IMG/VR virus record: IMGVR_UViG_2529292882_000018
Coordinates: 1 to 34,246 of that record
Strand: one strand, 5' to 3'
DNA: 34,246 nucleotides
Origin: a virus
Taxonomy: Duplodnaviria; Heunggongvirae; Uroviricota; Caudoviricetes
A program made the position numbers and the translations under genes. Shown piece after piece: positions 1 to 32,951 of this stretch. How positions within the stretch are numbered: position 1 is the stretch's first letter; every line of letters begins with the position of its first letter. The notes beneath the pieces were generated by a model, which saw nothing but the letters and a program-made list of their open reading frames with translations, had not been told where the DNA came from and did not search any database.

Positions 1-96
1 AAATTAGATACTAAATACATATGTGAAGGGTGTTGAACGGGTCAACGCCTACGGGGGAGAACATCCCCCGCTTAACTTTTAAGAGGATATAAAACT

Positions 97-381
97 ATGG
101 CTACTTTTATTACCTATGCTGTCATCATTACTATTCTGGCTGTTATTTCTGCTTATAAACTCGGAACCGAACCGAAAGAACGAGGCGAATTATTCTTAGG
201 TGCGTTTGTTGCATTTGCTAGCCTTGCGTTAATTGTCGAAGGAATTTCTTATATTGTTGGCCTAGTTAGTATGACACTTTTTAACTTCCATCCAACTATT
301 GCTATGCATTTACTACTGACGGTATTCTGGGTATATTGCTTAATCGAATTTTTAACGTTTGTTTTCAAACAGACTAAATAA
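97..381 (+). CDS. small integral membrane protein, function unknown
   Basis: 94-aa ORF with ATG preceded by AAGAGGA RBS; translation shows about three hydrophobic helix-length segments; followed by two + strand terminators. Confidence 0.5.
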   Translation: MATFITYAVIITILAVISAYKLGTEPKERGELFLGAFVAFASLALIVEGISYIVGLVSMTLFNFHPTIAMHLLLTVFWVYCLIEFLTFVFKQTK

Positions 382-539
382 TATTGTAATCTGCCATTTC
401 TCCTTATGTGGTTTTAACAGGGGGCTTTCGAAAGAGAGTTCCCGATTAAAAGCCATAAAACACATTCAGTACAGTGTTTTCATAGTCAGTGACTATACAA
501 CATAAAAACATAACAAGTATAGATTGAGTATTAATCCTC

Positions 540-565
540 CCGCCCCGAAGGGGGCGGTTATTTTT
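540..565 (+). terminator. intrinsic terminator
   Basis: CCGCCCC-GAAG-GGGGCGG hairpin followed by TTATTTTT. Confidence 0.7.
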
Positions 566-642
566 CTGGCTTTACTAGATAATGTAGCATTATGTTCATT
601 ATAACCTCATCTTTGTTGTGCAACCCTAACCTAAACTACTAG

Positions 643-671
643 GGAGTCTCTTAAATGGGACTCCCTTTTTT
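643..671 (+). terminator. intrinsic terminator (possibly bidirectional)
   Basis: GGGAGTC...GACTCCC hairpin followed by TTTTTT; T-run overlaps the stop codon of the converging minus-strand gene. Confidence 0.6.
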
Positions 672-1611
672 ATTGGCAGTAAGAAAAGTTAGTACCGTAC
701 ATTTCATCATGAAGCATTGCAGCATTGCGTTTCTGTTCTTCTTCCTCATCTTCTACATCACTAGAAAAATGAGATTTGCCCTTAAAAGAACGAAGTAATT
801 GCAGTGCAGCCATCGGATCACGCATCACATCGATTTTCACTTCTACTTCATCATTTGCGGCCTCATCAGCCGCGTTTTCAACTACTGCCACCGGAGCAAC
901 TTCTTTAGCTTTCAGTTCTTCAATCTCAGCTTTCTGTGCTTCGATAATCTGGTCTTTTTCTTCCAGTGCAGCTTTCAGTTCTGCGATCTGTGCTTCCAGT
1001 GCAGCAAAGCGATCTTCAACAACCGGAGAAACAGCATTCACCTGTGCTTCCAGTTCCAGAAATGCTTCGCAAGATTCAATACGTTCTTTCTCTTCACCTT
1101 CATAAGCAACCAGTTCTACAACTTCTTTTTCGGTAGCGTGGCTGTTAAAGAATACAGCAAAGTAAGGATTGCCGGATTTAGTGAAGTTCAGTTTAGCTTT
1201 TCCGGTAACTTCTTTACGACGACCGAAGGTGATCTGGCAATCAGAGGTATCCTGAAAATCCATGTTAGGAGCGGAAACGATAGCAGTATCACCAGCAATA
1301 ACCAGGTGGAACAGTTCAGAAGAGTTCTTAACGGTAAAAGTAACGATGTGGTCTACTGCAACGTCTTTAGCAGGTTTAACGCGGTCGATTGCTTTACGAA
1401 TGCCGTTAGGCAGTTTACCGTCAACACCAAAGCCAGCCGCGATCAGTGCTTCACGATGTGCTTTAAAGCCAGCGAAAGCGGATTTCTGCTGTGCAAAGGA
1501 AACATGAGCAACAACTTTCGGCTGAATCTTCTTGTTTGCTTCGGTGCCAAATTTGATAACTGCTTTAGCGTTGGTTACTTCGTTAGTGAAAAAGTTAGCG
1601 GAAAATAACAT
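670..1611 (-). CDS. hypothetical protein with central coiled-coil and acidic C-terminal tail
   Basis: 313-aa ORF, ATG with GGAG RBS; heptad-like EAQ/ELK-rich central segment, DVEDEEEE acidic tail; no family recognised by eye. Confidence 0.55.
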   Translation of the reverse strand: MLFSANFFTNEVTNAKAVIKFGTEANKKIQPKVVAHVSFAQQKSAFAGFKAHREALIAAGFGVDGKLPNGIRKAIDRVKPAKDVAVDHIVTFTVKNSSELFHLVIAGDTAIVSAPNMDFQDTSDCQITFGRRKEVTGKAKLNFTKSGNPYFAVFFNSHATEKEVVELVAYEGEEKERIESCEAFLELEAQVNAVSPVVEDRFAALEAQIAELKAALEEKDQIIEAQKAEIEELKAKEVAPVAVVENAADEAANDEVEVKIDVMRDPMAALQLLRSFKGKSHFSSDVEDEEEEQKRNAAMLHDEMYGTNFSYCQ

Positions 1612-1654
1612 TATAAATACTCCGTGGAAAGTTAGTTTTAATTGTTCATTTCAA

Positions 1655-1692
1655 GCCTCCTTTGCTGCAACAAGGGAGGCTTTTTCTTTTTT
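1655..1692 (+). terminator. intrinsic terminator oriented for + strand
   Basis: GCCTCC...GGAGGC hairpin followed by TTTTTCTTTTTT; sits between two minus-strand genes. Confidence 0.55.
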
Positions 1693-1724
1693 AAAGCCAT
1701 CATATAATTCTCAGTGAAAGGTTA

Positions 1725-1907
1725 TTACCACACCTCTGCGGTAATCTTTACTTTAATGTCATACTTCTTTAAGAGTTTGTGGAAGGTTGATTGATCAATA
1801 CCTTCACCTTTAAACCATTCACCCATCACTACATCAGGTGTCAGTTCAAAATAACGCTTTGCCATTTCTAAAACGATTTCACGAGTGAACTTAACAGGTC
1901 GTGCCAT
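1725..1907 (-). CDS. small putative HTH DNA-binding protein
   Basis: 60-aa ORF with AGGAGG RBS; shares RP..F ... GI..STF..LKKYDIK pattern with the protein at 5281-5514 (paralogs). Confidence 0.5.
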   Translation of the reverse strand: MARPVKFTREIVLEMAKRYFELTPDVVMGEWFKGEGIDQSTFHKLLKKYDIKVKITAEVW

Positions 1908-2426
1908 CTTAAATCCTCCTAAATCTGGATTAATGATTTCTTAAAAAAGAGCGTTAACCGCTCACTATTATTTATATGGGGATTGTATTTTATTTTTCAA
2001 CCCCTCACATTTATCTCTTATATATGTATTTATAACAGAGATATGTTAAAATGTTATTCAGATGTTATCAGACGTGTTAAATGTGTTAAACCGCAGCACG
2101 AATTGCTAAAGAGAAGAACACGAATTAACCAAATTGATGTTTATTCAATCAATTTAGAAAATTGCATAGCACTTTTTGCTAAAGCGGTGAGCATTAATTG
2201 AGCTATGAATTGTAAAGATTTGTTACAAGATTTTCTCTCAGATCCAAATCTTCACAAACATATAACAATTTAACACGATGATAACAATAGGAAGGAAAAT
2301 CGGTAAATTTTCACTTTCAATACAAATATTATACCACATTTTTTCTCGAATTGTCAAGTATAGCACCAAACCTACATAGTGTCAAGAAAGGACTTTCAAA
2401 CCTACACTAGCCCTACACTATGAAAA

Positions 2427-2612
2427 TTGCCCCTGAATTTTGCCCCTGAACCAAAATCCCCTAGATTTCACTATCCCATTTTTGCCCCTGAAACCTACTA
2501 TTTTTGCCCCTGAAATTCTGGGAAACAGTGATTTTGCCCCTCATTTTTGCCCCTGAAATGCCAATAATTGCCCCTGAAAATCTAATTTTTGCCCCTGAAA
2601 TTTGCCCCCGAA
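2427..2612. repeat. array of nine direct 11-bp repeats TTGCCCCTGAA (seven exact, two one-base variants)
   Basis: Copies start at 2427, 2440, 2482, 2504, 2534(variant), 2547, 2568, 2589, 2602(variant); spacing 13-42 bp; inverted variant copy at 2655-2665; same 11-mer forms the left arm of the terminator at 5125. Confidence 0.85.
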
Positions 2613-2813
2613 AAGGATTGGTAAGAAAAACTCTTTATAAAACATTGACTTAGTGAGGGGCAAAAACGGGGAATCGGGCGTGCATAGATATTATATGACA
2701 CATTCGCTACGCTCATGTGTAAAACCAAAAACAACAAATAACCAAAAAGATATTAGGAGGGCGTAGCCCGACTGCGCGAAGCGCTAACCAATTACTTCTA
2801 GTAACACTAATTT

Positions 2814-3036
2814 AAACTAGATGATACTAGATGGTCTTAGAAGGAATTAACTAGTTTGCTCGCTCGCTTCGCTCACTCTCAAACGTCTGCGACGCCACTG
2901 CGTGGCATCGAGAATCACTTCTGAAAGGATTTTCTTGAAAGGGATTTTAAACTAGTTACTAACTGATTCTAGAAAGATAGTAATAATCACTTTGAAGATA
3001 ATAGTAGTTAACTGGTTACTAGATGATTCTAGATCA
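2814..3036. repeat. three copies of a ~20-27 bp CTAG-rich element (core ACTAG-TGAT-CTAGA)
   Basis: Copies at about 2814-2844, 2949-2976 and 3009-3036; eight CTAG tetranucleotides within roughly 250 bp of non-coding DNA. Confidence 0.55.
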
Positions 3037-3293
3037 CTTTAATGATCATGAAAGGTATTGGTATCCCTTCGGGATTGCAACCTTCGGTTGCTAAATTGCT
3101 TCCTAATTATTATTTCTCCAAAAGAAAGATTCTTATATTCTAAAGATACTTCTTCGTTTTGATGATGATTTAATCAAAATCTATGAAGGAGGCGAAGCCG
3201 ACTGAATACCAATTCCTTTCAAATTAGACAAAAATTTCTCGTTATAAATAATAGTGAACTTACTTTGATTCACTTTTTTAGAGGATTTCCACT

Positions 3294-3746
3294 ATGATCA
3301 ATACTAAAACTCCTTTCATTCTTCTGGGTCTGAACCATGATGATAATCTGGCTATGATGCATGTTTTCGCTAATCGTGGTTATAACATCATTCGTCATTC
3401 CGAAGACTCCAATTTCTCAACTGCTTTCTATGCTCTTAAACGTAATGGTCGCCCTACGGTGATCGTAGACTGCTTTACTGATGAAGGTCGTGAACAATAC
3501 AACAACATTCCGGCAATTATTGTTCGTGATGACCTGCCGTTTGATGTTCGTGAATATGACGTTGATTTAGGCTCTTACTATGGGATCGCCGATCTTGACC
3601 AGATTATGGCTGATTACGGTAAACAACCCGCTCAGGAAGCCCCAGAACACGATGAACAAGACGAAGATGACGACGACTACACACCAATCTGTTTCTCTTC
3701 TCACGGTGGCTTCTACGGTTACGATGAAGGCTTAGATATGCTGTAA
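3294..3746 (+). CDS. acidic hypothetical protein
   Basis: 150-aa ORF; strongly acidic with C-terminal EHDEQDEDDDDY run; leader shares a 22-bp element with the gene at 30200. Confidence 0.6.
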   Translation: MINTKTPFILLGLNHDDNLAMMHVFANRGYNIIRHSEDSNFSTAFYALKRNGRPTVIVDCFTDEGREQYNNIPAIIVRDDLPFDVREYDVDLGSYYGIADLDQIMADYGKQPAQEAPEHDEQDEDDDDYTPICFSSHGGFYGYDEGLDML

Positions 3747-3781
3747 TTTAGGTCAACCCTTTGGCGTCTTGTCAAGGGGTA

Positions 3782-3810
3782 TTGACAAAAATTTCTGACT
3801 TTTTTATGAT
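3782..3810 (+). promoter_or_regulatory. sigma70-like promoter with overlapping inverted repeat
   Basis: TTGACA (3782-3787), 17-bp spacer, TATGAT (3805-3810); inverted repeat TTGTCAA-6bp-TTGACAA at 3769-3788; further TTGACA/TTGACC boxes downstream. Confidence 0.45.
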
Positions 3811-3866
3811 TATCGCACTTGACAACTTTGAACCTATTTGACCTAGATTTGTAAAGAGGATGTAAC

Positions 3867-4199
3867 ATGAAAGAATTTACCATCACTAAATCCCTGTATG
3901 ACTGGACTGTTAAAATCTCCGGCAAAACCGTTTCTGTAACCCCTAGCCATGTAGAAAATGATTGGGGCGTATCCCGTGAAACTATCTCCCGTAGTATGCA
4001 TGTTCCGTTTGATCTGATGACCTTAACTGGTATTCATGCAATGCTGGAAGTTCGCGAACAATTCGAAGCTGGTAATCACAATGCGACTCCAGTTAGCAAT
4101 CACCTTCTTACTAATGAAGAACGTGAAATCATCGAAAACTGGCGTTATGAATATGCGATTCCTTATTATGAAGAAGATCAGGTAGAAATCGATTGGTAA
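3867..4199 (+). CDS. hypothetical protein
   Basis: 110-aa ORF with AAGAGGA RBS, downstream of the predicted promoter. Confidence 0.6.
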   Translation: MKEFTITKSLYDWTVKISGKTVSVTPSHVENDWGVSRETISRSMHVPFDLMTLTGIHAMLEVREQFEAGNHNATPVSNHLLTNEEREIIENWRYEYAIPYYEEDQVEIDW

Positions 4200-4288
4200 T
4201 AAATTTCTATTATAAATAAAATTGTTCCGGCGGTGATGCCGGAACTAGGAGGACCAAATCATTAAACCGTTTAAGGGGAATTAATACT

Positions 4289-5116
4289 ATGAATACTGTT
4301 ACCGTTATGAATACTGCTAAAACTGCTTCCGTGTCTCTGGTTGTTGATAACACCAAACCGCTGACCATGTCTTCTCGTCAGATCGCTGAATTTACCGGAA
4401 AAGAACATAAGCATGTTAAACGTGATATTAAAACTATGCTTACTTCTCTTGAATTAGATGAGTCCAAATTTGGACGCATCTTTTTTGACCAATATGGACG
4501 TGAACAAACCGAATATCACCTTGACGAAGAACTTACGCTGACTCTTGTTACTGGTTACGATGTTAAGCGTCGAATGGTTGTTATTCAGGAATGGAAGCGA
4601 CTGAAAGAAGAAAATGAAAAACTGCGTTCTCAGCAAATCAACCCTTACGCAAACATGACTAAGCTCGACTGGATTCGTGAGGCAATGGAATTGGAAGCCG
4701 CAAACGAACAACTGATTCAAGAAAAGAAACAACTGGTTGAATTGCATGTTCGTAAAGCTATCGACACACACAGTCTTAGCCGCTTATTAGGCGAAAAACG
4801 AGGCTCTACGACGGTACAAATGATTCTGAAAGGTTTATGTGCTGCTGGTGTTCTTGAGCGTCGTCTGGATGCTTCTGGTAAGCCTAAAGGCTATGATCTG
4901 CTTCCTCCTGGCTATATGTTCGCTCGTATGTCGGCACACGGTCAGATCGAGTTCACTGCTGATGCTATCCCGCATCTCGTAAAACTCGGATTGCTTGAAG
5001 AAGAAAAGGCCGCAACTTTGAAATTGCCACAGCCGAACAACTCACGAGCAATCATTAATAACACTGCTTTGCTGATTCGTCAGAATGCTGGCTCTCTGGA
5101 AGTCTTCGGACTGTAA
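4289..5116 (+). CDS. Rha-family phage regulatory protein (antirepressor-like)
   Basis: 275-aa ORF; N-terminal segment MSSRQIAEFTGKEHKHVKRDIKTML matches the Rha N-terminal signature as I recall it; central coiled-coil. Confidence 0.65.
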   Translation: MNTVTVMNTAKTASVSLVVDNTKPLTMSSRQIAEFTGKEHKHVKRDIKTMLTSLELDESKFGRIFFDQYGREQTEYHLDEELTLTLVTGYDVKRRMVVIQEWKRLKEENEKLRSQQINPYANMTKLDWIREAMELEAANEQLIQEKKQLVELHVRKAIDTHSLSRLLGEKRGSTTVQMILKGLCAAGVLERRLDASGKPKGYDLLPPGYMFARMSAHGQIEFTADAIPHLVKLGLLEEEKAATLKLPQPNNSRAIINNTALLIRQNAGSLEVFGL

Positions 5117-5124
5117 TAATTTTT

Positions 5125-5149
5125 GCCCCTGAATTTCAGGGGCTTTTTT
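5125..5149 (+). terminator. intrinsic terminator
   Basis: GCCCCTGAA / TTCAGGGGC inverted repeat followed by TTTTTT directly after the Rha-like gene. Confidence 0.8.
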
Positions 5150-5241
5150 GTATCTGTAGATGCGCTCAGAGTTGAGTACATCCCCTCAATTTTGAGGGCA
5201 TCTATAGATCTCACCAAAACTGGCGAGATTGTTTTACATAC

Positions 5242-5265
5242 AAAAAAGCCACTCCGAAGAGTGGC
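5242..5265 (-). terminator. intrinsic terminator for the minus-strand cassette
   Basis: GCCACTC-CGAA-GAGTGGC hairpin preceded on + strand by AAAAAA (U-run on minus transcript). Confidence 0.65.
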
Positions 5266-5280
5266 AAAGAGAATCAAAAC

Positions 5281-5514
5281 TCAAAAACCTGTTGCTTCTA
5301 CGATCTGACCATCACCGATCTGAACATAGAATTTAATGTCTAACTTCTTCATATTCTTATAGAATTGGGCGATTGAGATCCCATGTTCACTAAGAATCTG
5401 TTCTTTCGCTTCCTTACCACGATCCGCTGTATAGTAAGCGTAGGCAATATCAGCCATCTGTTCAGCGTTAAAACGGGCAGGACGACCGCGAGTAGCTTTA
5501 GTAGTCATAGTCAT
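5281..5514 (-). CDS. small putative HTH DNA-binding protein (paralog of 1725-1907)
   Basis: Track ORF 5281-5541 begins at GTG; an ATG at 5514 with GGAGA RBS gives MTMTTKATRGRPARF...; C-terminal FYKNMKKLDIKF motif shared with the 60-aa protein. Confidence 0.5.
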   Translation of the reverse strand: MTMTTKATRGRPARFNAEQMADIAYAYYTADRGKEAKEQILSEHGISIAQFYKNMKKLDIKFYVQIGDGQIVEATGF

Positions 5515-5543
5515 TTTCTCCAAATTAAAGTGAATGTTCACCT

Positions 5544-6146
5544 TTATTTAGAGGACTTACATTTTATCGGAAAAAGTTCTCCATCGTCAATACTCATAAA
5601 GAACTCTGCCTTAATCCCGTACTTCTTCAACCGTGAATAGTATGTACCCCGACTTATATCAACCTTGCGAAGCACTTCAAAGAACCCTTTAGGATCGTTG
5701 TAATAGTGGCTATAACGCACGTTAGCGAGTTCAACGAATAGTTCCCTTGTATCACCATAGCCTTTCTTGAAAGCCTCGTTACGATAGCGTGTAATTGCGT
5801 GATTCAATCTCTTCTGTTTCAACACTTCTCGGATCGGCTTCCACTGCAACCGATAGATAGGACCGTCATCCACTCGATAATAACGCTTGATATCAAAATC
5901 AAACCAATCTCGGACTCTCCGAAACTCTGTATGTGATGTTCTATGCTTCTTAAAGAAGTTGTGAACGTCTGTATAACCATTATCGCGGTAAAACTCTATT
6001 AAAATCTCTTTCGCTTCCTCACGACTAAAGCCAGATGTTGTGTAGTCGGTTTTTAAATGCTTATGCTTAACTGGTAAACGATATTCATGATCGGTACAAG
6101 ACAAGGCTAATTCTAATTCATCTCTTTGTTGCTGATTAATTAGCAT
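5544..6146 (-). CDS. hypothetical basic protein with C-terminal HTH-like motif
   Basis: 200-aa ORF with AAGGGGGG RBS; C-terminal [16 protein letters not shown] resembles the HTH of the two small paralogs; arginine/lysine rich. Confidence 0.5.
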
Positions 6147-6234
6147 ACAACCCCCCTTAAATCTTAATACCCGTATTTATCAAAAAATCAACAATTTAAT
6201 AAATACCTTCATATTTCGTAATGAGGGTAATTAC

Positions 6235-8139
6235 ATGAAACTGATTTCTAATAAGGCCAAATTAAAAAAGATTCTCAGAAATGCAGCCAAATATATTACG
6301 CCACCGCCTAAACTCCTTCCTTCGGAATGGTGCGAAGCGAATATGGTGCTGGTAGATGGTCCTCAAGCTGGGGATAAAGTTAAATTGCTGTCATTTCAGA
6401 AAGGCATGATTGATGCTCCTTTCCTTGAGAACAAGAAAAAGTATGTTCTGATGACCAGTGCGCAGATCGGAAAGACTACCATCTTGAACGGCATCCTGTT
6501 TAACCAGATGGCTAACGATCCATGCAATATGATTATCGGACAATCAACCGCTAAAGAAATGTCTCAATATCTCGCTGGTAAGATCCGACCGTCTATCGAA
6601 GCATGTGATGCATTAAAAGACGTGGTTACAGACAAGAATGATCGCAATGCGGTTAACAACAATAACCAGCTACAGCTAAAAACGAATCACTTCCTTTACA
6701 TGGTATCGCTTACCAGTCCATCAACCCTACGCGGTAAGACCGCAAAGGTTGGATTACTTGACGAAATCGATGCTGCTACAGCCTCAGAAGAAGGTGATCC
6801 GGTGGCACTGGCTGCTAACCGTTTAACTACCTTTGGCGATGAAGGTCGATTAGTCGTATCCAGTACCCCGACCAGTAAGCTGGGAAGCATTAACCAGCAA
6901 TGGTTATCAAGTGATATGCGTATGTTTTTTGTTCCGTGTCCTCATTGCGGGGAACACCAGGTGATCGAGTGGGAAAACGTTCAATTTGAATGGCGTAACA
7001 TCGATGGTAAGAACTTACCCGATCCTGATACCGCTCGTTATATTTGCCCCCACTGTAAGAACGCATGGACCGAAGGGGAACGAATCAGGGCAGTAGCGCA
7101 AGGCGAGTGGAGAGCAACCCGTGAAAGTGAAGTAGCAGGATTCTGGATTAGCCGTCTGTATTCACCTTTCAGTAGTATCCGCGCTTGTGTGGTTGATTTT
7201 AGTCATGCGTGGCAATCCTTTGATTTACAATCATTTTATAACACCGTGTTAGGTAAGGTATACGACGATCAGGACACGGCAGTAGAAGCAAATGAACTGG
7301 AACAACTCAAAACAGATGTTTCTATCGAGAATATCCCTGATGACGTGATTTTCTTATGTGCGGGTACTGACCAGCAATTAGATCGCGCAGAAACTACCAT
7401 CTTAGGTGTAGCGAAAGATAAGGTTTACATTCTGGATCACCGCAGCTTTTACGATCATAACTGTGAACGATATGAATCCCCTGTATGGGATAGATTAATC
7501 AACTTCCATAAAACCAAATTTACTACTGTATCGGGTGATCGTGTTCCTATGCTCGCCAGCTTCCTTGATACATCGAACGGTCGATTCACTCAAGCTGGAT
7601 ACCGTATTTGCGGCAAGTGGAAGAACTTACACGCTATCAAAGGTAGTTCTGCTGGTAACGCTCCGATCATTCCGGTTAAACCTACCCGCACAGGTGGTCA
7701 TGAATTGCTTATGTTGGGTGTTAACGTGGGTAAAACTGCATTTCGTGAAATGTTGGCTAGGAACCTGAAAGATAATCCTCATATTGCCTTAGAAATATCA
7801 GACACCGTTCCTGATGATTATCTCGATCAGCTTTTAAGTGAATCTGTTAAGCGTACTACTACTGGCGTGAGATGGGTAAAAAATCCAGGCGTTAGGAACG
7901 AGGCGCTCGACTGTGCCGTGTATGCTACAGCGGCTTCTCGCTACGTCCTTTCAAAAATGTCATGGGATAAACTCATCGCAATGAAAGACAGCTTAAACCG
8001 TGTTGTCGAAGAACCCGTAAAAGCTCCTAAATCGCAATCTAACGAGCAAACCGAAGAAACTAAGCCAATCACACGACCACAACGTAAAAACATCGCCAGA
8101 CGTCCAAATAGAGGCCGTAGTTGGGTAACATCGTTCTAA
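6235..8139 (+). CDS. terL: terminase large subunit, lambda GpA type
   Basis: 634-aa ORF; Walker A-like SAQIGKT; blocks [35 protein letters not shown] and [13 protein letters not shown] match lambda gpA blocks as I recall them. Confidence 0.9.
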
Positions 8140-30155: not shown

Positions 30156-30199
30156 TTCTTATAAATAGTAGTGAACTTATTATTTTCGAGGACACTACT

Positions 30200-31198
30200 A
30201 TGAATACTACTTTAGCAAAGGATATCGAATTTACCACAAAAAGCAAACGTGCGACCCCTCCGGTCGAATATGAAACCAGAATCATTAAAGTTTGTCAAGT
30301 GCATGGGTGGTTATACAGTGGTTTTGTGCTTCCTGTAAAGAAACCATTCCAGAACACCAAAGTTTGCATAGAAGTTAACGGAAAGGTTAAAACGCCATGT
30401 ATTAGTCATGTTCTAACTGGTCAGTTTACTGGCAAAGATAGAGTATCACCGCCTAAGAAGAAGTTTAGATTTACCGAAGAAGAACACTTAGAAAACGCTC
30501 GCAAGTTCTACAAGCCGATAGGGTGGGATGTGTTAGGTCTGGCTGAACCTTATCAGGGTGTTGACACTAAACTAATTCTTCGTTGTAAGTGCCACGGAAA
30601 GATTCACAAGAAAGGTGATTTACACAATAACCGCAGACAAGGCGGGTTAACATGCCCTTTGGTTAGGGGTGTACTTAAATCAATTCAGAATGGTAGAAAA
30701 CAGGTTATCAGAAACAAGTTTGCACAGCGCCCTATGCACTTTTATCTAATTCGTGTTGGCGAGAAGTTTTTCAAATATGGAATTACCACTCGCAAAGATC
30801 CGATGCAACGGGTAAGAGAACACCAGAAGCACACCAGCGAGAAAATCACCTTTGAATGCTCACATTTGTTTAACATTGGATGGAAAGCTGGTGATTTAGA
30901 AATGGGGATTAAAAAGAATATTCAGGGCAAGAAAATCCCACGTAAGGTAATGAATAGCGGATTCACAGAAACGCTACCGATTAGCAAGTTGAAAGATGTT
31001 AAATCATTCATCAATGAATACATCCACACCAACCCATCTAAGCCAATGTATTTTGATGATACCAACGCAATCAATCTGAACAACTACATTAGTGATGAAG
31101 ACATAGAACGAGATTTATCGCAGTGGATGAATGCACCGTTAGCTGATTTAACACCGGAAGACTTAGAACTCGATTTAAGCCCTTTAGAGGCTCTTTAA
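30200..31198 (+). CDS. Cys/His-rich protein with GIY-YIG-like (T5orf172-like) segment
   Basis: 332 aa; FYLIRVGEKFFKYGITTR...RVREHQ resembles the GIY-YIG core; N-terminal Cys/His clusters suggest zinc binding; leader shares 22-bp element with gene at 3294. Confidence 0.5.
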   Translation: MNTTLAKDIEFTTKSKRATPPVEYETRIIKVCQVHGWLYSGFVLPVKKPFQNTKVCIEVNGKVKTPCISHVLTGQFTGKDRVSPPKKKFRFTEEEHLENARKFYKPIGWDVLGLAEPYQGVDTKLILRCKCHGKIHKKGDLHNNRRQGGLTCPLVRGVLKSIQNGRKQVIRNKFAQRPMHFYLIRVGEKFFKYGITTRKDPMQRVREHQKHTSEKITFECSHLFNIGWKAGDLEMGIKKNIQGKKIPRKVMNSGFTETLPISKLKDVKSFINEYIHTNPSKPMYFDDTNAINLNNYISDEDIERDLSQWMNAPLADLTPEDLELDLSPLEAL

Positions 31199-31271: not shown

Positions 31272-32951
31272 TTAAATTCCAAATTCCTGTAATGGACCTG
31301 GTATTTCCTCTTCTGGTTTCCAGTTCTTATCTGTCAGCATGTCTAAACATGGATGCAAAACAAGCCCGTTACTTTCCAGAATCTGTCTATCATTGATAGT
31401 TTTCAAATCAATGAATATCCGGCCTTTCCTCGTTCCTCTTGAATTTTCTATTACAACTCTCTGGGTCTTTCCATCGATGTATTCCAGTACAAACAAGTTT
31501 TTGTTTCTGTCAATCCTGCTACACCCGATCCGCTTTAGAGCTTGCTTAATCTTAAACCGGACCTTTAGTCGTTCCTCGTTATAAACATCTTCTAAATCAA
31601 ATTCTGCGAGCTTCTCCCAGCCTTGAGAGTCCACAGAATACATTTCCTCTTCTGCCATCTTGATCTGATTGTAGAGTGTTTCACGCTCGCTATTGAGGGT
31701 AGTAATCTGATCGGCTAGCTCCTTCGTTGCTCCTGTCATAGCAGAAAGGGCAATCAGGTTATCAATCTTGCGTGATATCTCATCAACCTGTACTTTCAAA
31801 GCCGGAACCGGATTAGCCTTATCCTCAGCAATCCAGATTTTATCAGCCAGCAATTGCAATACAGCTTTCTCTAATTGATCCCCTCGAAAACTCCAGTTTG
31901 GATGCTCGCAATCAAGTCTACGTGAACGGGTCGCATCACATGTATAACGATACTGGTCAGAACGTTTGTTTGTTCCCTTCACTTTAACCATAGCGCAACC
32001 GCAATGATCACATTTCAATAGGCCAATGCCACTAAGCAGGGGGATCGGTTTAGCTTCTTCCTTGTCTCCAAAGTTCCATGCTCTAGCACCAATATTTTTC
32101 TTAAGGTGATAGAACGTAGCATCATCAATAACACGAGGGTAATAATCCTTTAACTCATAGTTAACGCCATCTACAGAGACTTCCTTGATACCAATCAAAG
32201 CGCGGGTATGGAACAACCTTTCAACCATTGCCCGTGACCATTTTGAATGCTTCTTATTACTAACCGCTGGTGGCGGTGTATATGTCTCGTTAAGGTGATC
32301 CAGTATTTCGGCGGTTGAACGTCCATTCTTCCGTAATTCCACAATCTCCTGAACAACAGGGAAGTACACCGGATGAGGCAGCACATAACCGGAAGTGGTA
32401 TCAGTCCACCACATATTCTTTCCAACTTCCTCGATAGCCACTGCCGGATTTTGTGGATTTTCTTGATGAGCTTTAATCTTAATCAATGCGCTTGAGTTAG
32501 TACGATTGCGCTTAGTCTGGCTTTCCTCATTACCACGGATGAATAAAAGGATGGAGAACATCAGGTCCATCGGGTTAGCGGTAACAGTATCCAGCGAGTA
32601 GATCTTGTTATCCATGCCAGTAACAATGGTTATTCCCCTACGGATGATTGAAAGGAATAACTCCTGCGCACTGACAATATCGGCACGGGATAAACGGTCC
32701 AAGTTTTCGATGAATAGCCAGCTACCAACAGGAACGGATCTACCTATTGCATCAAGGAAACGAGATAGCGCCCCTGTTTTGGAGTTAGCACCTTTAAACG
32801 CAGATACACCCAGATCCTGATAATCATTTACCAGTTCAAGGTCATACTTTGCCGCAATCTCTCTCGCCATCCTGATTTGTCGTTCATAACTCGAACCATC
32901 ATTCTGACGCATAGACGAGAAGCGAATATACGAATATAGTTTAGTTTTCAT
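31272..32951 (-). CDS. large serine recombinase
   Basis: 559 aa; N-terminal YIRFSSMRQ serine-recombinase catalytic motif and ENLDRLSR block; CDHCGC...C...C zinc-ribbon; C-terminal coiled-coil. Confidence 0.85.
   Translation of the reverse strand: MKTKLYSYIRFSSMRQNDGSSYERQIRMAREIAAKYDLELVNDYQDLGVSAFKGANSKTGALSRFLDAIGRSVPVGSWLFIENLDRLSRADIVSAQELFLSIIRRGITIVTGMDNKIYSLDTVTANPMDLMFSILLFIRGNEESQTKRNRTNSSALIKIKAHQENPQNPAVAIEEVGKNMWWTDTTSGYVLPHPVYFPVVQEIVELRKNGRSTAEILDHLNETYTPPPAVSNKKHSKWSRAMVERLFHTRALIGIKEVSVDGVNYELKDYYPRVIDDATFYHLKKNIGARAWNFGDKEEAKPIPLLSGIGLLKCDHCGCAMVKVKGTNKRSDQYRYTCDATRSRRLDCEHPNWSFRGDQLEKAVLQLLADKIWIAEDKANPVPALKVQVDEISRKIDNLIALSAMTGATKELADQITTLNSERETLYNQIKMAEEEMYSVDSQGWEKLAEFDLEDVYNEERLKVRFKIKQALKRIGCSRIDRNKNLFVLEYIDGKTQRVVIENSRGTRKGRIFIDLKTINDRQILESNGLVLHPCLDMLTDKNWKPEEEIPGPLQEFGI

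Follow-up and report, generated by a model that had tools for sequence, protein, structure and literature searches.

Small proteins encoded on the minus strand of an E. coli-type prophage, at two loci separated by several genes, appear to carry the same helix-turn-helix (HTH) motif. This raises two questions: whether these proteins form one family of real genes, and what such a family does in the phage. The window analysed here, a stretch of 34,246 nucleotides considered as a whole, covers nearly the whole of a ~36.6-kb prophage. In E. coli ES2 this element interrupts ycdX; its left end lies ~1.2 kb to the left of window position 1, and it stops just past the right window edge.

The prophage has a lambda gpA-type large terminase gene (TerL, 6235–8139, plus strand) and portal, protease-capsid fusion, tail and M15 endolysin genes; the integrase is a large serine recombinase (31272–32951, minus strand). 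Repressor, Cro, replication and excision genes were not recognisable in the prophage. A 332-aa endonuclease-like gene (30200–31198, PHROG 681) adjoins the integrase; in E. coli ES2 its place is taken by a DEAD/DEAH helicase gene, indicating a variable accessory slot.

The 1500–6300 region is carried by 58 of 5426 complete E. coli genomes (~1%), and the prophage lineage is also present in Salmonella, Proteus and Edwardsiella, with 27 IMG/VR contigs of 15.6–45 kb assigned to it. A nucleotide search of GenBank phages with this region returned no match, and tblastn against GenBank phages found nothing for the 200-aa protein P3 described below, for the P1-like protein P0093 or for the 204-aa protein of a T4-like contig (L012). 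The closest GenBank TerL belongs to phage DCP80, where unrelated small ORFs precede the terminase gene. A search of the literature on ycdX prophages found nothing relevant.

Three genes on the integrase strand

All three ORFs lie on the integrase strand, opposite to every structural gene, at the positions and in the orientation given by the sequence-only reading. P1 (1725–1907) encodes 60 aa with an ATG start and a GGAGG ribosome-binding site, contains a single HTH module and is the first gene of an operon that continues into a gene for a 313-aa protein, here called 'big'. P2 (5281–5514) is a 77-aa ORF, annotated in RefSeq as a 75-aa form starting two codons later, and comprises a single HTH module with a full beta-hairpin. 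P3 (5544–6146, 200 aa), transcribed divergently from TerL, starts with a short helix, after which come two HTH modules in tandem. The shared motifs proposed earlier are present in all three proteins (ARPVKF...GIDQSTFHKLLKKYDIK in P1 and GRPARF...GISIAQFYKNMKKLDIK in P2), with two corrections: P2 has AQF in place of STF, and the motif of P3 occupies residues 167–180 and not the very end of the protein.

Orthologues of P1 with 54–100% identity were found in E. coli, Salmonella, Edwardsiella, Proteus and IMG/VR contigs, and the database homologues of P1–P3 are all 'hypothetical proteins' of Enterobacteriaceae. Comparison between relatives revealed purifying selection on each of the three genes, with dN of 0.07–0.46 at saturated synonymous sites and dN/dS of 0.13–0.33 where computable. 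Since dN is low while synonymous sites are saturated, P1, P2 and P3 are real genes.

Four copies of one module

BLASTP aligned P1 with P2 (E = 3e-6, 33% identity over 52 aa) and each of them with two parts of P3, residues ~40–97 and ~133–182 (P1 to P3 133–182, 5e-4; P2 to P3 40–97, 4e-4). The internal repeat in P3 was clear in an alignment of 25 P3 homologues. Family alignments were then built from database homologues, and the module families were compared with hhalign. The four families matched with probabilities of 87–97% and E values from 1e-10 to 4.5e-6: P3 module a (residues 36–104, 5835–6041, minus strand) scored 3.5e-9 against the P1 family and 1.3e-8 against the P2 family, and module b (residues 128–200, 5547–5765, minus strand) scored 2.9e-8 against each of these and 4.5e-6 against module a; AlphaFold supported the same two modules.

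To avoid circularity, HMMs of single families were run against 1220 six-frame ORF fragments, and for any one family the other two proteins were the sole matches above noise. The P1-based HMM recovered P2 at 7.9e-9 and P3 at 9.5e-4, the next match being at 7.4. A joint HMM resolved P3 into two domains and detected no fifth copy in the window or the flanking prophage DNA. On these comparisons, P1, P2 and P3 are homologous and contain one module of ~60 residues four times over. That the resemblance is accidental, or that the short, AT-rich ORFs, matching no known family, are not genes, has a practically negligible probability given profile-profile E values of 1e-10 to 5e-6, reciprocal recovery by single-family HMMs, orthologues that keep their length across genera, dN far below dS, and the presence of ribosome-binding sites.

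The earlier proposal of three paralogous proteins with one HTH-type module is thus borne out by BLASTP, hhalign, HMMs and AlphaFold, and pairwise and profile alignments yield significant similarity, but the number of modules is four, with two in P3. The term 'dispersed' overstated the arrangement: there are two loci, P3 and P2 form a tandem pair, and P3 itself results from an internal duplication.

The predicted structures agree with the alignments. In each module AlphaFold places a basic arm (R-P-x-x-F, predicted to be unstructured) and then three helices, the last of which leads straight into a beta-hairpin; the P1 arm reads ARPVKF, and the P1 hairpin is truncated. The P2 model (pLDDT 81) has helices at 17–29, 34–43 and 48–57 and strands at 63–66 and 70–73. 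The P3 model (pLDDT 76 overall, ~85–90 inside the modules) has helices at 42–56, 61–67 and 72–82 and strands at 86–92 and 97–99 in module a, and helices at 134–147, 152–161 and 166–175 and a strand at 180–186 in module b. The modules thus have the three-helix bundle with a helix-turn-helix and the recognition helix last that defines the homeodomain-like fold. The recognition helix follows the pattern GI(S/D)xxxF(Y/H)Kxx(K)K, and the P2 version, GISIAQ(F/Y)YK, was unvarying in the six loci compared.

Searches of P1–P3 against Pfam, PHROGs, NCBIfam and PADLOC gave nothing at curated or meaningful thresholds, with no Pfam match at E ≤ 0.1 for the window proteins; a profile search of PDB sequences gave nothing significant (best E 0.23), and BFVD held no match to the module. 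Against 1.84 billion representative sequences, the module profile recovered 37 proteins at E ≤ 1e-3. Matches outside the family were proteins with 4–7 tandem HTH repeats (Pfam HTH_23, HTH_28, HTH_Tnp_1 and HTH_7) and single IS3-OrfA-like proteins. HTH_Tnp_1 (PF01527) gave matches in 9 of 30 family members, all below its gathering cut-off of 24.1 bits (best E 0.017). No transposase partner was found near the module genes, whose neighbours were phage genes in every locus. Because no curated family was reached and the profile matches belong to HTH classes, we file the module in the homeodomain-like HTH superfamily, outside the Pfam families. Judged by its profile relationships, it is an unclassified, lineage-restricted offshoot of the IS3-OrfA (HTH_Tnp_1) / HTH_23 / resolvase-type class. 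The family is new and narrow in distribution, but proteins of its kind are very common.

Two distant single-module proteins, P0109 and P0112, are encoded on very short contigs. The protein downstream of P0109 has a coiled-coil layout like that of 'big', with sequence similarity to 'big' that is not significant.

Gene order and control DNA

The gene order around the three genes is kept in seven diverse relatives, whose P3 proteins are down to 43% identical; they derive from E. coli, Salmonella, Proteus columbae and a metagenome. TerL and P3 are divergent; after P3 come P2, plus-strand genes whose make-up varies, a non-coding gap of ~1.4 kb, and P1 followed by 'big'. A two-module P3 and P1 are present in every locus, and P2 is missing from a single one (L011). 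Since the arrangement is shared across relatives, the duplications are old and the genes are core to the lineage. The plus-strand set often includes Rha and always a 150-aa protein (3294–3746 in the window). The latter matches no family and ends in a strongly acidic tail, EQDEDDDDYTPICF...GLDML, which resembles the C-terminal tip of bacterial SSB.

The P3-P2 unit ends in an intrinsic terminator (5248–5265, minus strand) with equivalent hairpins in relatives. It lies back-to-back with the terminator that follows Rha, GCCCCTGAATTTCAGGGGC (5123–5143, plus strand, the terminator itself spanning 5125–5143). At its other end, an 88-bp divergent control region (6147–6234) separates P3 from TerL and contains the boxes GTATTTAT (6173–6180) and TAATAAATA (6197–6205). 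Directly upstream of the P1 ribosome-binding site, a terminator-like hairpin, GAGCG-GUUAA-CGCUC followed by U6 (1943–1963, minus strand, -8.3 kcal/mol), is conserved in seven loci, with a compensatory GGGC/GCCC change in L004. Further upstream lies a TTATAAATA box (2027–2035, minus strand), whose core TATTTATAA is identical in all seven loci, and ~420 nt upstream of P1 are two leftward near-consensus sigma-70 promoters (2328–2385, minus strand; 12/12 and 11/12 matches). From this layout, transcription upstream of P1 may yield a leader or non-coding RNA of ~400 nt, or the P1-'big' operon may be under attenuation control; the non-coding regions gave no match in Rfam or tRNA scans.

The AT-rich boxes share the sequence TWATAAATA, which occurs six times in the window against 1.7 expected (1611–1619, 2027–2035 on the minus strand, 3242–3250, 4210–4218, 6197–6205 and 30159–30167). 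All copies are intergenic, and five point to the downstream gene. The genes that they precede are P1, the 150-aa gene, Rha, TerL and the gene at 30200; the complement, GTATTTAT, precedes P3. The boxes at P1, at the 150-aa gene and in the P3-TerL spacer are conserved in relatives. TWATAAATA may serve these genes as a common operator or be a -10 element that they share. It contains TATAAATA, the late-promoter consensus of phage T4.

The non-coding gap houses an iteron array (2427–2612, plus strand) of eight 11-bp TTGCCCCTGAA units, one with a mismatch, spaced by 13 to 43 bp, mostly ~21 or ~42. The whole window has nine matches to the unit against 0.48 expected. The ninth (5123–5133), an exact copy, forms one arm of the Rha terminator hairpin, and the same hairpin is found in L010. 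The gap also contains two CTAG-rich 24-mers, 88% identical to each other (2950–2973 and 3010–3033), and two copies of a GC-rich motif, GGAGG(G)CG(T/A)AGCC(C)GACTG (2757–2776 and 3188–3205). On the far side of P1 and co-transcribed with it, 'big' (670–1611, minus strand) combines a variable N-terminal domain with a coiled coil and is 309–380 aa long in the relatives.

The same combination occurs in a T4-like phage. Contig L012 (5189–6323), and likewise L013, carries between the homologues of genes 3 and 2 a cassette made of an (A/T)GCGATTAC repeat array, a 64-aa P1-type gene whose product is identical to P1 over its first 12 residues, and a 204-aa 'big' homologue (phmmer E 4.5e-17 against the L008 protein and 1e-16 against that of L006, in a seven-sequence comparison). 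GC-rich hairpin segments similar to those of the gap stand ahead of its iterons. The joint presence of array, P1 and 'big' in a T4-like phage indicates a unit portable between temperate and lytic phages; for the same reason, P1 is not specific to lysogeny.

Possible functions and comparison with known systems

Taken as a whole, the observations are best explained, in our estimation with slightly better than even confidence, by P1–P3 acting as sequence-specific DNA-binding regulators at two control points. We infer DNA binding, targets and a regulatory role from the fact that the proteins are compact HTH proteins encoded promoter-proximally on the integrase strand of a prophage that has no other recognisable phage regulator; the conserved boxes in the P1 leader and the P3-TerL intergenic region provide supporting context. 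The proposed scheme concerns a family of ~36-kb prophages whose large serine recombinase integrates them in ycdX. At the first control point, P1, as the first gene of the portable module of iteron array, P1 and variable 300–380-aa protein, would act on a conserved site in its own leader or promoter through a recognition helix that is conserved whatever the iteron type, and would thereby set expression of the P1-'big' operon. The second is P3-P2, a terminator-bounded leftward unit diverging from the promoter region of TerL and the structural operon. A P3 monomer may bind a bipartite site through its two modules, and together with P2 it may control the divergent late/packaging promoter or help to keep the prophage silent.

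Three points count against parts of this scheme. The conserved AT-rich boxes could be plain -10 promoter elements and not operators; P1, at least, is no regulator specific to lysogeny, given its occurrence in a T4-like lytic phage; and, for P3 as a local regulator, exchange of its core leaves both neighbouring control regions unchanged. This core (5625–6152, minus strand) is replaced between otherwise near-identical prophages. The DNA of the window and L010 is 94% identical over 12–5151, 83% over 5239–5625 and 84% over 6152–6282, and similarity is absent over 5625–6152. L008 and L009 display the same replacement pattern, so that in two independent prophage pairs the DNA flanking the core is 83–94% identical. 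Meanwhile, the window and L010 still share ~94% identity in the non-coding gap, and L008 and L009 ~90% in the P3-TerL spacer. Conservation in P3 is highest in the hairpins, and the recognition helices are the most variable structured elements, unlike the nearly invariant recognition helices of P1 and P2. Such a fast-evolving core suggests a specificity that differs between competing phages, and if the specificity of P3 does differ, its target lies elsewhere, as the neighbouring control DNA does not change with the P3 type.

These observations lend some weight to a different role for P3, that of an immunity or superinfection-exclusion determinant acting on other phages and not on its own promoters. 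Such a role would explain why the core, between conserved ends, is exchanged as a cassette in two independent pairs; the variation is concentrated in the recognition helices next to unchanged control DNA, and the P3-P2 unit carries a terminator of its own, as a prophage-expressed 'moron' does. On the other side, P3 occurs throughout the lineage, which is not typical of accessory genes, and it matches no defence family; we regard this role as rather unlikely.

We consider it improbable that P1 or P2 is the recombination directionality factor (excisionase) of the serine recombinase at 31272–32951. The prophage needs such a factor, none is recognisable, and P2 is dispensable in one lineage (L011). 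Some serine-integrase directionality factors are small proteins of 58–64 aa. However, both genes lie more than 25 kb from the integrase, similarity searches linked neither protein to excisionase families, and P1 occurs in the T4-like phage, where the genes called in the 13.6-kb L012 locus include no integrase.

The sequence-only reading also implied a link between the HTH proteins and the repeat families. P1 adjoins the gap, iteron arrays need a binding protein, and P1 accompanies such an array even in the T4-like phage. The comparison of the window with L004, L006, L008–L011 and L019–L045 contradicts this link. Relatives carry in the same place at least five iteron types, A (TTGCCCCTGAA), A' (TTGTCCGTGAA), B (CTAGGGAT), C (ACTAG(T/A)AA) and D (CCTACACT), two loci lacking a recognised unit, and across the 34 loci iteron type corresponds one-to-one with the sequence cluster of 'big'. 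None of the HTH proteins co-varies with the iterons: one P1 cluster (≥75% identity) is found with five iteron types, P1 proteins that are 100% identical adjoin arrays of type A or of type D, the recognition helix of P2 stays constant across types, and P3 identity is unrelated to type. Binding of the iterons by P1, P2 or P3 is therefore very improbable and we exclude it; the likely binder is 'big', which from its tracking of the repeats is probably an iteron-binding initiator or a centromere-type protein.

A role of P3, with or without P2, as the small terminase subunit or a packaging-site recognition factor is scarcely credible, and we reject it. P3 does adjoin a lambda gpA-type TerL, at the usual place of Nu1, and no small terminase gene lies inside the window; Sf6/Terminase_2 small terminases start with a similar arm and HTH, and PF20901 is among the matches of a related multi-HTH protein. 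However, a 184-aa ORF that ends at the left window edge (L001:17955–18509, ending at window position ~1–8) is matched along its entire length by PHROG 57, 'terminase small subunit' (E 2.8e-15), and has a Nu1-like N-terminus, ...AKKWQERGMPF. P3 lies on the other strand, no oligomerisation domain is predicted in it, P1, P2 and P3 have no terminase match in PHROG or Pfam, and P3 does not co-vary with TerL: L008 and L009 share 95% identity in TerL and 45% in P3. The Nu1-like gene lies ~6.2 kb from TerL, with the whole putative early/regulatory region in between; this separation is an unusual split for a lambda-type terminase.

A combined reading, which we offer tentatively as possible and not as probable, joins two features that may be undescribed: a portable iteron-P1-'big' module, possibly a phage origin/initiator or an incompatibility cassette, and P3 as a new kind of immunity or exclusion specificity determinant. 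If it is true, P1 would be the conserved regulator of a self-contained module that moves between temperate ycdX prophages and T4-like lytic phages, and the DNA-reading core of P3 would swap as a cassette beside the packaging operon. As three of the few conserved non-structural genes, P1–P3 are a natural entry to the control circuit of the prophage, and the module profile can be used to annotate these 'hypothetical proteins'. The tracking of iterons by 'big' and the separate Nu1-like small terminase redirect the obvious experiments, while the P3 cassette and the P1-iteron module in a T4-like phage offer concrete material for testing how phages exchange modules. What stands out as more unusual is the hypervariable P3 cassette, the sharing of the iteron module with a T4-like phage and the split between the terminase genes.

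Among known systems, oriE of phage T4 (12-nt iterons, repEA/repEB) likewise places an iteron cluster beside small genes. The L012 cassette, however, is inserted between the homologues of genes 3 and 2 and not at oriE, and T4 itself has no insert there. The T4 genes repEA and repEB, ORFs of 50 and 45 codons, run antisense to gene 5 in another part of the map; on ORF size and map position they were set aside as candidate homologues of P1 and 'big'. For the module itself, the IS3-family OrfA proteins (HTH_Tnp_1, PF01527) and HTH_23/HTH_28 are close relatives, with the module staying below the Pfam cut-off. Compared with IS3 OrfA, it is without a leucine zipper, a frameshift site and a transposase partner, adds a C-terminal beta-hairpin, and belongs to core prophage genes instead of an insertion sequence. 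Unlike the resolvase/Hin-type HTH_7 proteins and the HTH of Sf6/Terminase_2 small terminases, it comes without a catalytic or oligomerisation domain. Near systems also include tandem homeodomain-like HTH proteins that read bipartite sites, such as Tc3 transposase, CENP-B, Myb repeats and the two-HTH protein of PDB 2lvs.
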